64,000 bases of DNA. It comes from Candidatus Latescibacterota bacterium (GTDB lineage Bacteria > Latescibacterota > UBA2968). Below, in pieces: positions 16,896 through 50,011 of this stretch. Made by a program: the position numbers and the translations under genes. Numbering within the stretch: position 1 is the first letter of the stretch; each line of letters starts with the position of its first letter. Location: positions 1,728,001-1,792,000 of the forward strand of contig OZ242010.1 of NCBI GenBank assembly GCA_965204745.1, written 5' to 3'. The notes beneath the pieces were generated by a model. It saw only the letters and a program-made list of their open reading frames with translations, was not told the origin of the DNA and did no database searches.

Positions 16896-16915
16896 ACTGA
16901 CCACTGACCACTGAC
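16896..16915 (+). repeat. Short ACTGACC heptamer tract (~3 units)
   Basis: GGGG-ACTGACC-ACTGACC-ACTGAC. Confidence 0.7.
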
Positions 16916-23400: not shown

Positions 23401-25062
23401 CCCGGCAACAAGGTGTATCCGTGGATCGCCCGCGTTCGGCACGCGACCCCGGGCGTGGAACTCATCTCGCCGCCGCCGCATCACGATATTTATTCTATCG
23501 AGGATTTGGCACAACTCATTCACGACCTCAAAAATGCCAACCACCACGCTCGGATTAACGTCAAGTTGGTCGCTGAAATCAATGTGGGCATTGTCGCGGC
23601 GGGCGTGTCCAAGGGCCACGGCGATGTGGTGCTCATCTCTGGCCTTGACGGGGGCACGGGCGCGTCGCCGCAAACGAGCATCAAACACGCGGGCCTGCCG
23701 TGGGAACTCGGCGTTGCCGAAACCCACCAGACGCTCGTGCTCAACAATTTGAGATCGCGCATTGTGGTCGAAACCGACGGGCAACTCAAAACCGGGCGCG
23801 ACGTGGTGATCGCCGCGTTGCTCGGCGCCGAGGAATTTGGCTTTGCCACCACCGCGCTCGTGGCGATGGGGTGCATTATGATGCGCGTTTGCCACCTCGA
23901 TACGTGCCCGGTGGGCGTTGCCACGCAACATCCCGAACTCCGCAAGAAGTTTATGGGCGATCCCGACTATGTCGTCAATTTCCTGCGTTTCATCGCACGG
24001 GACATGCGCGAAATTATGGCGCGGCTCGGCATTCGCACGGTCGATGAACTCATCGGGCGCACGGACCTGCTCCACCAAGCAAAAACCGATCACTGGAAGG
24101 CCAAGAGCCTGGACCTGTCTCCCATTTTGGAAAAAGTGGATGCCAGCGACGACATCGGTCGCTATTGCCAGATCGAACAGGATCACGGCCTCGAACACGC
24201 GCTAGACAATCAGGTGTTGCTCGACGTTTGCAAACCCGCCCTCAAAGATGGCAGCAAGGTGCGCGCTACATTCGACATCAAAAATACCAACCGCGTGGTG
24301 GGCACGATTCTCGGCAGTGAAATCACGCGCCGGTTCGGCCCGGATGGCCTGCCCGAAGATACCATCGACATCGCGTTTGAGGGATCCGCCGGGCAATCCT
24401 TTGCGGCTTTTACGCCGCCCGGTATCACCTTTCGCCTCGAAGGCGACGCCAACGACTATTTTGGCAAGGGCCTGTGCGGCAGCAAGTTGATCGTCTATCC
24501 GCGCAGGGGATCGACCTTTGTGGCCGAAGACAATATCATCATCGGCAATGTCTCTTTTTACGGCGCGACCAACGGGCAAGCCTTTATCCGCGGTCAGGCC
24601 GGCGAACGCTTCTGCGTCCGCAACTCGGGTGTGCGCGCTGTTGTGGAAGGCATAGGCGACCACGGGTGCGAATACATGACGGGCGGGATGGCGGTTATTC
24701 TGGGCAAGACCGGGCGCAATTTTGCCGCAGGCATGTCCGGGGGCATTGCGTATGTGCTCGACGAAGAGGGCGATTTCCACACGCGCTGCAACCCCGAACT
24801 CGTGGATCTCGAATCCGTCGAAAGCGACGCAGACGTGGAAGACCTCAACCACATGATCGCCCAACACGCCGAATACACGCAAAGCCGCGTGGCACAACGC
24901 ATCCTCGCCCACTGGGAGGACGCATTGCCCAAATTCGTCAAAGTTTTCCCCAAGCCCTACAAGCGCATTCTCTCGGCTTATGAAATCGCACAACGAGCGG
25001 GCTTGGAAGGCGAAGACGCATGGCTGGAAGCCTTCCGCCGCGGCGTGGAAGTCGAGGCGTAA
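20500..25062 (+). CDS. gltB: Glutamate synthase large subunit
   Basis: [54 protein letters not shown] domain. Confidence 0.98.
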
Positions 25063-25292
25063 GAGGTAAGAGGTAAGAGGTAAGAGGTAAGACGTAAGAG
25101 GTAAGAGGTAAGAGGTAAGACGTGATAGCCACAAAAGGCACAAAAGGCACAAAAGGCACAAAAGGCACAAAAGACATGTGCTGAGTGGAAGTTGAGGCGT
25201 GAAAGGAAAGAGGTAAGACGTGATAGCCACAAAAGGCACGAGCGGGGTACAACTGGCAACAGCCAGTTCAAAGGCACAAAAGACATGTGCTG
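25059..25292 (+). repeat. Composite tract: GTAAGA(G/C)x9, CACAAAAGGx4-5, copy of gltB 3' end, partial second copy of the block
   Basis: Heptamers 25059-25121; nonamers 25130-25174; 25185-25202 matches gltB 25045-25062 at 16/18. Confidence 0.9.
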
Positions 25293-26502: not shown

Positions 26503-26544
26503 ACTGACCACTGACCACTGATTACTGACTACTGACCACTGATT
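26503..26544 (+). repeat. ACTGAYY heptamer tract (6 units)
   Basis: ACTGACC ACTGACC ACTGATT ACTGACT ACTGACC ACTGATT before the gltD RBS. Confidence 0.9.
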
Positions 26545-28237: not shown

Positions 28238-28346
28238 ACTGACCACTGACCACTGACCACTGACCACTGACCACTGACCACTGACCACTGACCACTGACC
28301 ACTGACCACTGACCACTGACCACTGACCACTGACCACTGACCACTG
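28238..28346 (+). repeat. (ACTGACC)x15 tandem repeat
   Basis: 15 exact units 28238-28342 plus ACTG. Confidence 0.97.
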
Positions 28347-34328: not shown

Positions 34329-34549
34329 GAGGTGAGACGGGATTTTAGCCACAAAAGGCACAAAAGGCACAAAAGGTGAGACGGGAGAGGTAAGAGGCGA
34401 GAGGTAAGAGGCAAGAGGTAAGAGGCGAGAGGCGAGAGGCGAGAGGCGAGAGGCGAGAGGCGAGAGGTAAGAGGTAAGAGGCGAGAGGCGAGAGGCGAGA
34501 GGCGAGAGGCGAGAGGCGAGAGGCGAGAGGCGAGAGGCGAGAAGGCCAC
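34324..34549 (+). repeat. Composite purine-rich tract: GTGAGA(G/C), CACAAAAGGx3, ~22 G(T/C)(A/G)AGAG heptamers
   Basis: Begins at the upstream stop codon; ends GAGAAGGCCAC. Confidence 0.95.
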
Positions 34550-47853: not shown

Positions 47854-48273
47854 TTAGATGCCGAGGTCATCCAAATCCTCCAGTTCATCCAATCCCTCGT
47901 CTTCGTCCATCAAGGGGTCTATATCTCGAATCACAACGAGAATAGATGCCTGCGGGACGATGACATATTTCTCGCCTTCAAAAGAAATCTCCATCGCGGC
48001 CTTTTGCAAAAACAGGGCAAAATCGCCTTCTTCAACTTGCAGGGGCAAATACCGCGGCTCGCTGGGCGCGTCTTGCCAGGGTTCGTCATCTTCGGGCGTT
48101 TCCGGCAAGGGCAAGCCAGGCCCAGTCGCCAAAATGCGCCCGCCCTGCACATCCTCTTTTTCCATCACGGTCTGCGGCAAATAAAGCCCGACTTTGGTGC
48201 GGTCTTCCAAATCTTCCCGCTGGATCAAAACCCGATCCCCAATCACGATCAACTCTCTGTTGCCCATTCGCAT
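47854..48273 (-). CDS. GroES-family co-chaperonin, orphan
   Basis: IGDRVLI, KVGLYLP, GRILATGPG, PLQVEEGD, GEKYVIV; acidic tail; start uncertain. Confidence 0.8.
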   Translation of the reverse strand: MRMGNRELIVIGDRVLIQREDLEDRTKVGLYLPQTVMEKEDVQGGRILATGPGLPLPETPEDDEPWQDAPSEPRYLPLQVEEGDFALFLQKAAMEISFEGEKYVIVPQASILVVIRDIDPLMDEDEGLDELEDLDDLGI

Positions 48274-48381
48274 TGTGATTTCCCATTTTGTGTGAACGCG
48301 GTCAAACTCATGCGTCAAACGTAAAAAATTATCTCCGAAGTGTCAACAGTCGCGTAAGAGGTAAGATACTCTCTTAAAAGG

Positions 48382-49389
48382 TCAAGGGGTTTTCGGGGTG
48401 ATTCGATAGAATTTTTCGCCCTCAAAATCTTGGTCATGGCGCAACATGCCCCAGATCGAATGGAGCAACTTTCGCATCACCGCAACGATAGCCTGCAAAG
48501 GTTTCTTGCCGCGGGCGATGAGTTGGTCATAGAAGGCTTTGACATGGCCTTCGTGTCTGATGGCCACCCAGGCAGGCATATAGAGGGCATGGCGGAGGTA
48601 CTTATTCCCGGTTTTCGAGATGCGTCTTTGTGGATTGGCGGTTCCGGATTGTTTGGGTTTGGGATCCAGGCCTGCATGTGCGACCCACTGGGGCGGTTGC
48701 ATCTCCTCTGGCAAAAGGGTCAACTCGGCCAAGAGCCGCAAGGCACTCGTTTGCGCGATGCCAGGCGTCGAGCAGAGGCGTTGGTAGGCACGCTTGAGGG
48801 GCTCATCGTGCAAAACGAGATCGAGGGCTTGGCTTTCCAAGTATGCAATCCGGCGTTTGAAGTGTCGAATATTCACCTGAATATCGCGTGCGATGAGACG
48901 TGTGCTGCGGATGTGGTAGCTCTGCGCGTGGTTGCGGCTCTGTTCGCGGATGATCTCCTGCTTGAGTTGGTCAATGCGTCTGGTGAGGGCTTGCAGTTGA
49001 AGCCGTTGCTCGCTCGGCGCTTGCCAAGGCACAAAAGGCATGCGCTCGGCATAGTCGAGGATCAACAACGCATCCTTCGCATCCGTCTTCGCCCGTTGCA
49101 TGCAGGCTTGGGCGTACTTGCTCATCGCTTTGGGATTGACGACCATGACCTTTGTGTGGCGATGCCGATGCAAGGCCAAGGCCACCCCCAAACTGTAAAG
49201 CCCGGTCGCTTCGAGGCACACAGAGACCATGTGCCCGCCCTTCGTGAGCCACTTCAGCAACCGCTTATGCGCTTGGGGATCATTGGCAAAGGTCGCTTGC
49301 ATGACAGCTTGTCCGGGTCTGGACAGGGCAACGGACAACGTGCGGGCACTGACATCAATGCCGGCAAAAGCGGGGTGAGATTTCGACAT
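48382..49389 (-). CDS. IS110 recombinase
   Basis: GIDVS, CLEATG, KTDAKDA (DEDD), QSGT, ISKTGNKYLRHALY, AVMRKL; AGGAGG SD. Confidence 0.95.
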   Translation of the reverse strand: MSKSHPAFAGIDVSARTLSVALSRPGQAVMQATFANDPQAHKRLLKWLTKGGHMVSVCLEATGLYSLGVALALHRHRHTKVMVVNPKAMSKYAQACMQRAKTDAKDALLILDYAERMPFVPWQAPSEQRLQLQALTRRIDQLKQEIIREQSRNHAQSYHIRSTRLIARDIQVNIRHFKRRIAYLESQALDLVLHDEPLKRAYQRLCSTPGIAQTSALRLLAELTLLPEEMQPPQWVAHAGLDPKPKQSGTANPQRRISKTGNKYLRHALYMPAWVAIRHEGHVKAFYDQLIARGKKPLQAIVAVMRKLLHSIWGMLRHDQDFEGEKFYRITPKTP

Positions 49390-49454
49390 GGGGGCCTCCT
49401 GTGATGAGGGGGTTGTAAGGGATCTGGTGCGCGCTCGGGGTCGCGTCCCGACCA

Positions 49455-49642
49455 TTGACGCCAAGTCTACCGGTCTTGTATATGCAGCCTCAAGGGGCTT
49501 AGATACTCTTCGGCATAGACCCGGCGGTCGGGGGGCCTATCTTACCTACAAGGTCATCGCCTTCAAGAGGGGCCGGCCTTCCCCGAGCCGGGCATCAAGA
49601 TGGCTTATCTCGATACGAGGGCGCAACTCCTAATTAACCCTT
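49455..49642 (-). ncRNA. IS110 bridge RNA (boundaries approximate)
   Basis: Guides match the junctions: target 49566-49572 and 49541-49547; donor 49501-49509 and 49475-49481. Confidence 0.8.
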
Positions 49643-49658
49643 ACTTCCAAGATACAAG

Positions 49659-49714
49659 AGGGGAGAGGCGAGAGGCGAGAGGCAAGCGGTAAGAGGCAAG
49701 AGGGAGAAGGCCAC
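49659..49714 (+). repeat. Heptamer tract (IS110 target); continues at 48354-48363
   Basis: GGGAGAG GCGAGAG GCGAGAG GCAAGCG GTAAGAG GCAAGAG ... GAGAAGGCCAC. Confidence 0.85.
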
Positions 49715-49771
49715 ATTGATATTACCGCTTGGTTTGCTGAACGCCGTTCGCCCATTTGGCAGAATAAAATC

Positions 49772-49800
49772 TTGACAAATGACCCAATAAGGCATATTAT
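49772..49800 (+). promoter_or_regulatory. Sigma70 promoter upstream of holB leader
   Basis: TTGACA-17 bp-TATTAT. Confidence 0.75.
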
Positions 49801-50011
49801 TTTGCCCGCGTTGTTTTGGCTTGAGGAGTCGTTCCATGTTGTCTCTCTTTCCCATCCCGCAAATGGCAATGCCCGTCGTTGTACGGGCGATGCCCGTCGT
49901 ACATTTCCCTCGTGGGCGGGAGCATGGATAGCGGATCATTTTGGTCGTTTGACACGTAAAAAGCCGTTGGAATGTTCCGTTCCAGCGGCTTTTCATCATG
50001 GAGATGTTGCG

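Follow-up and report, generated by a model that had tools for sequence, protein, structure and literature searches.

A 64,000-nucleotide stretch of contig OZ242010.1 (the window, which lies within a single contig of 5.48 Mb) carries on its minus strand an insertion sequence that we assign, with a probability of about 90%, to the IS110 group as a recently active element, composed of a recombinase of the DEDD/Ser type and a left end encoding a putative bridge RNA that is aimed at a junction between heptamer repeats located between genes. The assignment draws on the anatomy of the element, the homology and catalytic residues of its enzyme, its copy number and flanks, the covariation of guides with targets, a gradient of target occupancy and an extragenic location, all of which are observed. 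As far as sequence can tell, the element has every IS110-group feature that can be looked for in this way. The bridge mechanism itself is already known; what is new is a target class made of heptamer repeats and a clean natural record of guides and their targets.

We propose that the element would excise as a circle, with the right end (RE) and the left end (LE) meeting across one CT dinucleotide, and that the joined TTGACC (RE) and TATCTT (LE) would drive transcription of the bridge RNA. The first loop of this RNA would pair with the target and the second with the donor, with AGAGUAUCU and AUACAAG pairing with the joined ends AGAGTAT-CT-TGTAT, whereupon the recombinase would exchange strands at CT and the element would be inserted there without duplication. 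The programmed target would be one junction between two CT-phased heptamer variants, and because this target lies between genes, copies could accumulate without breaking genes. That the RNA is made, that the circle forms, that its junction acts as a promoter and that the chemistry is as described are steps we infer from the homology to IS621.

Guides match both junctions and change with them

The element occupies 1291 bp at positions 49656-48366, or 1.29 kb at 49658-48364 when the CT core on each side is included, and consists of a 267-nt non-coding left end, an open reading frame (ORF) of 335 amino acids and 16 nt past the stop codon. A left non-coding end much longer than the right one, here 267 nt against 16 nt, is a hallmark of the IS110 group (PMC11208160; this paper and PMC11208158 are cited throughout for their main texts). 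On the minus strand, the left junction reads ...CTCCCCT-CT/TGTAT and the right junction ...AGAGTAT/CT-TACCT, where slashes mark the boundaries of the element. Both junctions had been read in this way in a preliminary description of the DNA, which also named four strings in the left end as guides (CCCCTCT, AGGTAAG, AGAGTATCT and ATACAAG); all four lie where it had placed them (Table 1). Removal of the element does restore a single 7-bp register, as that description had proposed, and Tandem Repeats Finder (TRF) reports a period-7 array at 49657-49707.

The four strings follow the guide rule of IS621, whereby target recognition falls to the first internal loop and donor recognition to the second, the 3' sides are complementary to the top strand, and the core is included in every guide (PMC11208160). 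By our own arithmetic, the joint chance expectation of three specified 7-mers and one 9-mer in 267 nt is about 1e-8 or less. A stronger argument comes from other copies. A blastn search found 52 full-length copies in the same genome (G000), plus 11 shorter partial matches; one copy with a divergent left tip (C1:602733) was left out of later counts, such that 51 of the 52 are anchored. Another 26 related loci comprise seven in G016 and 18 in G018, both Latescibacteria metagenome-assembled genome chromosomes, and one on a Gemmatimonadota contig (L056). CT is present at both junctions of all 51 copies and of all 25 relatives in G016 and G018. The uninterrupted 12-mer target with a single CT is present five times in the genome, and the flanks of inserted copies carry no further duplication.

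Guide-target covariation is likewise evident. In the main guide class (45 copies), the left flank is CCCCT-CT in 41 of 45, and the right flank is TACCT in 24 and TGCCT in 17. A single copy with the guides UCCCUCU and AGGUGAG sits between TCCCT-CT and CT-CACCT. Members of a subfamily with 89% identity carry CGCCUCU (four copies) or UGCCUCU (one), each together with AAGUAAG; their left flanks are CGCCT-CT (three), CACCT-CT (one) and TACCT-CT (one), and the right flank is CT-TACTT in four of five. The guides in G018 are CGCCUCU and GGGAG, and 14 of its 18 copies have CGCCT, CACCT, TGCCT or TACCT before CT on the left and CT-CCCGT on the right. Those in G016 are UCCYCCU with AGAAAAG or AGGAAAG, next to pyrimidine-rich left flanks and, in six of seven copies, CT-TTTCT. 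The left target guide varies along with the flank in copy v5, in the 89% subfamily, in G016 and in G018.

When eight guide classes from three genomes are compared, guides match their cognate flanks at 8.66 of 10 non-core positions (n = 76 elements) versus 5.87 of 10 for non-cognate flanks (n = 532), and in seven of the eight classes no other guide fits better than the cognate one, the exception being a class with one member. Matches of this kind are thus found again, with other letters, in eight guide classes. On the donor side, 14 of 15 aligned rows share the left donor guide, the right end reads AGAGTAT-CT in 74 of 76 elements, and the right donor guide matches in full in 50 of the 51 copies. 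More distantly, the right guide of the Gemmatimonadota locus matches at seven of seven positions, and in an element of G030 with 54% identity the right guide matches the right flank in three of three copies and the left guide in two of three.

A separate observation concerns the core of this G030 element (L093-L095). Its left guide ends in AU, and two of three left junctions read ..AT/TGTAT. The core may be AT here, or the register may be ambiguous; IS621 tolerates an AT core (PMC11208158).

The recombinase has the residues of an IS110-group enzyme

The encoded protein contains the domains PF01548 (E 1.2e-24) and PF02371 (E 4.8e-20), and nearly its full length aligns with two transposases of known structure in PDB, those of ISCro4 (E 7.6e-40) and IS621 (E 5.8e-36). 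Residues D12, E60, D103, D106 and S248-G249 align with D11, E60, D102, D105 and S241-G242 of IS621 (the PDB chain of which is offset by two residues in the alignment), and the catalytic residues of IS621 are D11, E60, D102, D105 and S241 (PMC11208158). Both an N-terminal RuvC-like DEDD domain and a C-terminal Tnp domain with its Ser-Gly pair, as is typical of the IS110 group, are therefore present. All 57 PF01548 matches in the genome fall inside the coordinate ranges of full or partial copies of the element, as compared by eye, and no second IS110 enzyme is found among them.

The left end is predicted to form two guide-bearing stem-loops

Folding of the left end as a single sequence gives a z score of -2.59, and two of 200 shuffled sequences fold as well. 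In the consensus of 15 left ends, a closing stem encloses a target stem-loop followed by a long donor stem-loop, with inner hairpins that separate the paired guides. With a hand-written structure of 32 pairs placed on a 10-row alignment that includes the G030 element, 95.6% of the cells are paired versus 22-50% when the structure is slid along the alignment. Six of the 32 pairs are changed on both sides, five of them in the donor-binding stem-loop, and values as high as these are attained in 0-1 of 500 shuffles. The guides are the most variable columns of the left-end alignment.

This architecture bears on whether the four strings might instead act as DNA, serving as subterminal protein-binding repeats or as retained copies of the target, with no bridge RNA at all. 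They are direct or inverted DNA repeats of the ends and flanks, as this explanation would have it, and the sequencing runs listed contain no RNA. However, the recombinase is homologous to enzymes shown to be guided by RNA, and the strings sit in internal loops of conserved stems that have undergone compensatory changes. Furthermore, the target variants that are tolerated correspond exactly to G:U or U:G wobbles, namely TGCCT for AGGUAAG, and CACCT or TACCT for left guides that contain G. We consider a purely DNA-based role very unlikely.

If a bridge RNA is made, its promoter may be assembled on the circle. The preliminary description had put TTGACC and TATCTT 18 bp apart across the joined ends, and we obtain the same 18 nt for RE and LE joined across one CT, by counting on the sequence rather than by scanning the joined form. 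The spacing would be 17 nt for 13 genomic right ends (of full and partial copies) that have one T fewer, and also in G016 and G018. TTGACC or TTGAAC is kept at the position of the stop codon in G016, G018 and L056. No promoter-like site lies upstream of the RNA in the integrated copy, which fits the picture for IS621, where a promoter is reconstituted on the circle (PMC11208160). Candidate bases for the handshake model of PMC11208158 are also present: AU after the right target guide could pair with A6-T7 of the donor, and A after the right donor guide could pair with T7 of the target.

Occupancy follows the fit of the target guides

Heptamer junctions in the genome can be counted as filled by an element of the main guide class or as free. 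The perfect match, CCCCT-CT-TACCT, is filled 20 times and free five times. CCCCT-CT-TGCCT, with one U:G wobble, is filled 17 times and free 65 times, and TACCT-CT-TACCT, with two distal mismatches, is filled four times and free 83 times. No element is found at TGCCT-CT-TGCCT (241 free), CACCT-CT-CACCT (117), CGCCT-CT-CGCCT (73) or CCCCT-CT-CCCCT (45). Because abundant junctions are empty and the perfect site is mostly filled, the element uses the junction that its loop spells rather than heptamers in general. The tolerated variants are those that an RNA guide would tolerate, and the encoded target and the commonest natural target of IS621 differ by the same kind of wobble (PMC11208160).

This gradient also speaks to the idea that sites are chosen by the DNA structure of the arrays, or by melting of pyrimidine-rich repeats, with the guide matches being secondary or coincidental. 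Such a preference would accommodate the presence of 50 of 51 copies in heptamer arrays, and the abstract of a preprint describes a structural layer of target recognition in ISPpu10. It would not account for abundant array junctions that go unused (0/241, 0/117, 0/73 and 0/45) while a rare perfect junction is 80% filled, nor for the relative in G016, which has other guides and lies outside arrays in seven of seven copies. Array structure as the determinant of site choice is accordingly about as improbable, in our judgment, as the DNA-only role discussed above.

The element has probably transposed recently

Among the 52 copies, 37 are at least 98.7% identical to the query, 10 are at 94-96% and five are at approximately 89%. 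Of the 51 analyzed, 30 are identical across the whole element, 50 retain an intact 335-aa ORF, and 34 lie on the minus and 17 on the plus strand; their left ends represent nine sequence variants. The least likely explanation of all is that repeat-rich DNA was duplicated or recombined and that the copies, now fossils, spread with it rather than by transposition. Repetitive flanks could favour ectopic recombination, but the copies differ from one another outside the heptamers, their boundaries are precise to the nucleotide, identical copies and intact ORFs prevail, and the corresponding intergenic region of G015, G005 and G003 lacks the element.

Two further arrangements are found in this genome. 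At G000:C1:1121582-1124187, a main-subfamily copy and a 96%-subfamily copy form a direct tandem with only CT-TACCT-CT as a spacer; the younger copy used the heptamer beside the left junction of the older one. At G000:C1:2972633-2972844 lies a 212-bp derivative that runs from the left end through the right donor guide and then straight into the final bases of the right end; it keeps most of the putative RNA without the recombinase gene.

One assembled contig from run X6 (278 nt, depth 14) follows the groES-like side to 48361 and then reads on for 20 letters in heptamers rather than into the element, which hints weakly at an allele lacking it.

Landing sites are lineage-specific arrays between genes

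TRF lists 1195 period-7 rows genome-wide, which sum to 42,366 bp over rows that can overlap, and these rows fall into two classes, ACTGACN and the CT-phased CTNNNNT. Runs of at least three CT-phased units surround 50 of the 51 copies, and runs of at least four units surround 46. According to our own crude codon-bias gene finder (3278 genes covering 78% of the genome), both 30-bp flanks are free of genes in 40 of 51 copies, one flank is mostly covered in four, and both are covered in none. The suggestion in the preliminary description that simple-sequence repeats are used as safe landing sites fits these numbers, with no copy inside a gene, and its proposal that the flanks of other copies be compared yields the same kind of flank in all 51 rather than unrelated sites. 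Two tracts in the window that it listed as near-matches, 25059-25120 and 34374-34542, are CT-phased heptamer arrays and indeed miss the guides by two and by one to three positions, respectively.

The copy in the window sits between divergent groES-like and holB-like genes. Comparison of window positions 48319-48363 and 49659-49771 with L067-L069 shows that these two genes are also neighbours in G015, G005 and G003, where a short spacer lacking both heptamers and the element lies between them; the same region in G016 and G018 holds other repeats. The array that hosts this copy is an addition in this lineage. Within a panel of 31 genomes (the source genome, 18 of its genus and 12 of its order), arrays of four CT-phased units number 515 in G000, 209 in G018 and at most two in the other 29, including G016. 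CT-phased runs surround 15 of the 18 relatives in G018 and none of the seven in G016, which thus carries the element without four-unit CT arrays.

The second heptamer class, ACTGACN, is not targeted by the element and is represented in the window at 16896-16915, 26503-26542 and 28238-28346. Four-unit ACTGACN matches number 904 in G000, none in G018 and 15-45 in G001, G008, G009 and G016, and such arrays occur in genomes that lack the element. Heptamer arrays are lineage-specific expansions. Beside those at 25059-25120 and 34374-34542, window positions 25130-25173 and 34350-34376 hold nine-base repeats (CACAAAAGG, plus strand) and fixed linker motifs. Several small modules are combined into mosaics in the intergenic repeats, which bear a loose resemblance to the mosaic repetitive extragenic palindromic (REP) elements of E. 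coli.

A sequence from the left tip also heads hairpin modules

A 10-mer composed of CT and the first eight nucleotides of the element occurs 211-212 times in G000, versus about six expected. Its contexts there include 56 left ends of the element, 89 sites before a conserved GC-rich hairpin module and 16 before a second module, and it heads approximately 150 sites outside the element (for example, C1:747868 and C1:1404320), as well as sites in G016 (L097-L126) and in the flanks of loci L038-L054 of G018. The hairpin module exhibits compensatory differences between G000 and G018, and in G016 it often ends in ..CAT-CT, so that it is flanked by CT like the element. The left donor string AGAGTATCT occurs 116 times in G000. 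The longer GAGTATCT occurs 184 times, comprising 55 occurrences after the left-donor-guide context, 55 after the right-end context and 74 that are scattered, versus about 122 expected. Because these last contexts are scattered, the hairpin modules do not share the right end of the element. The donor loop might use them as solo half-sites, or they might be non-autonomous elements.

Counts of the 10-mer are 212, 242 and 294 in G000, G016 and G018, whereas the remaining 28 genomes of the panel have 1-56; a reversed-pattern control gives 0-9. The recombinase protein is found at E values of 1e-20 or below in G000, G016, G018 and G030, and amplification of the 10-mer is restricted to the three genomes that have this element, as opposed to the one with the 54%-identical relative. 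Judged by one protein, G000, G016 and G018 are mutually closest (85-87% versus 76-79%), and because the three are closest kin, these co-occurrences may represent one event. We regard it as an unlikely speculation that the recombinase and its RNA help to build or move the mosaic intergenic repeats of this genome, including the 10-mer modules and the arrays. If this were true, a CT every 7 bp would provide a ladder of crossover points at which arrays could be expanded, shrunk or inverted by the enzyme.

Points that weigh against a bridge RNA element

Several observations count against our assignment. First, some guide matches are imperfect: cognate fits in G016 and G018 are weaker (7.1-8.5 of 10), the right donor guide in both is AGACAAG, with one mismatch, the left donor guide of copy v5 contains a mismatch, and the left target guide is 7 nt long compared to 9 nt in IS621. 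Second, donor and target both have T7, such that handshake pairing with the cognate DNA is also possible, and cognate handshake pairing locks IS621 (PMC11208158). Third, the structure was derived from the same related rows on which its pairs were counted, and because these kin are not independent, the counts lend support that is not independent. A search of positions 48000-50000 against Rfam 15, with E values up to 1, returned only a chance match to mir-223 (E 0.59, 17 bits versus a gathering threshold of 57), so membership of the RNA rests on its layout rather than on a curated model. Fourth, production of the bridge RNA is deduced from sequence, there being no RNA among the 24 runs listed; the labels of those in which the stretch occurs are either metagenomes from sponges or the sea, or coded names of organisms. 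Neither circle nor excision joints appear in the contigs of four runs (X1, X2, X5 and X6), which cannot show rare forms. Finally, the gene finder on which the extragenic placement relies is a crude one.

Coordinates of the element

Table 1. Features of the insertion sequence and its flanks, in window coordinates
Feature	Coordinates	Strand	Remarks
Left flank	49659..49714	-	CT-phased heptamer array with a CTCCCCT end, which is the left target half (LT)
Left CT core dinucleotide	49657..49658	-	
Left non-coding end, 267 nt	49390..49656	-	Putative bridge RNA encoded
TATCTT, -10-like hexamer	49649..49654	-	Tip of the left end
Putative bridge RNA core	49433..49588	-	Closing stem GCUCGG/CCGAGC; alignment consensus pairs 70-75 with 224-229
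Target-binding stem-loop (predicted)	49534..49578	-	Outer stem GGCC/GGCC, inner hairpin AAGG/CCUU; helices 1 and 2, 95-100% of cells paired
Left target guide CCCCUCU (putative)	49566..49572	-	Same sense as left flank plus core; would pair with the bottom strand
Right target guide AGGUAAG (putative)	49541..49547	-	Complement of top-strand CT-TACCT
Donor-binding stem-loop (predicted)	49447..49532	-	Long stem, internal loop, inner hairpin AGCC/GGCU; helices 3-5
Left donor guide AGAGUAUCU (putative)	49501..49509	-	DNA AGAGTATCT; equals the last 7 nt of the element plus core
Right donor guide AUACAAG (putative)	49475..49481	-	Complement of core plus the first 5 nt of the element (CT-TGTAT)
Recombinase gene, 335 aa	48382..49389	-	AGGAGG at 49400-49395 ahead of ATG
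TTGACC, -35-like hexamer	48380..48385	-	Overlaps the TGA stop codon
Right non-coding end, 16 nt after stop	48366..48381	-	Ends in the left donor half AGAGTAT
Right CT core copy	48364..48365	-	
Right flank	48354..48363	-	TACCT, the right target half (RT), then CTTAC

Significance

A single genome here provides a natural specificity profile, with 51 insertions, four guide variants and wobble tolerated at set positions; two distal mismatches are tolerated at approximately 5% occupancy, and the perfect site is near saturation. IS110 elements can thus be programmed onto simple-sequence repeats as well as onto REP hairpins, and in sister lineages the scaffold is pointed at other heptamer variants or at a site that is not a repeat. 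In the literature we found no paper in which heptamers or any other tandem simple-sequence targets are connected with IS110 elements or bridge RNAs, and the supplementary tables of PMC11208160, with their thousands of orthologues and targets, may hold such cases. For those who build tools, the element is a compact orthologue with target guides of 7 + 7 nt. For genome biology, it connects the unexplained repeats of a sponge-associated lineage, both heptamer and mosaic, with a recombinase guided by RNA.

Comparison with known systems

Members of the IS1111 group have a recombinase of the same family, and bridge RNAs are predicted for them too, in this case within a long right end, together with subterminal inverted repeats of 7-17 bp (PMC11208160). 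The present element differs in having a right end of only 16 nt and its guides in the left end. ISPpu9 and ISPpu10, IS110-family elements of Pseudomonas putida, resemble it in placing many copies in one repeated intergenic sequence, either REP or another conserved intergenic repeat, but as far as the published abstracts on them describe, their targets are palindromic or single conserved sequences rather than tandem simple-sequence arrays. The ISCro4 transposase (PDB 9T56) is the best-scoring solved homologue (residues 7-326), a comparison that concerns the protein only. An IS110 gene on an E. coli plasmid, found by tblastn of plasmids, was rejected as a stand-in for IS621, its ends being unlike those of the present element and its identity as IS621 unproven.

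The closest parallel is IS621 of E. coli (PDB 8WT6), and the proposal in the preliminary description that the layout is that of IS621 agrees with what is described for that element (PMC11208160) in recombinase family, core, strand rule and guide-target logic. Its further claim of a similar donor holds for the named positions A6, T7, C8, T9, T10 and T12, which are identical (PMC11208158), but cannot be extended to the rest of the IS621 donor, which is not given in the main text of either PMC11208160 or PMC11208158. The two elements share the domain pair, the catalytic D, E, D and D with S-G, a long left end, a target loop that precedes the donor loop, and a CT core that is included in guides whose 5' sides pair with the bottom strand and whose 3' sides pair with the top strand. 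Both also have a repeated intergenic target, the commonest natural form of which (among free sites, in the present genome) is one wobble away from the perfect complement. They differ in that the proteins are only about one-third identical (by eye), the left target guide has 7 rather than 9 nt and the right target guide 7 rather than 4 nt, and the candidate handshake bases here would also pair with cognate DNA. Whereas IS621 recognizes a REP hairpin, the element described here, present in 52 copies in an uncultured host that is Latescibacterota-like according to the record titles of its relatives, is directed to a junction within tandem heptamers.

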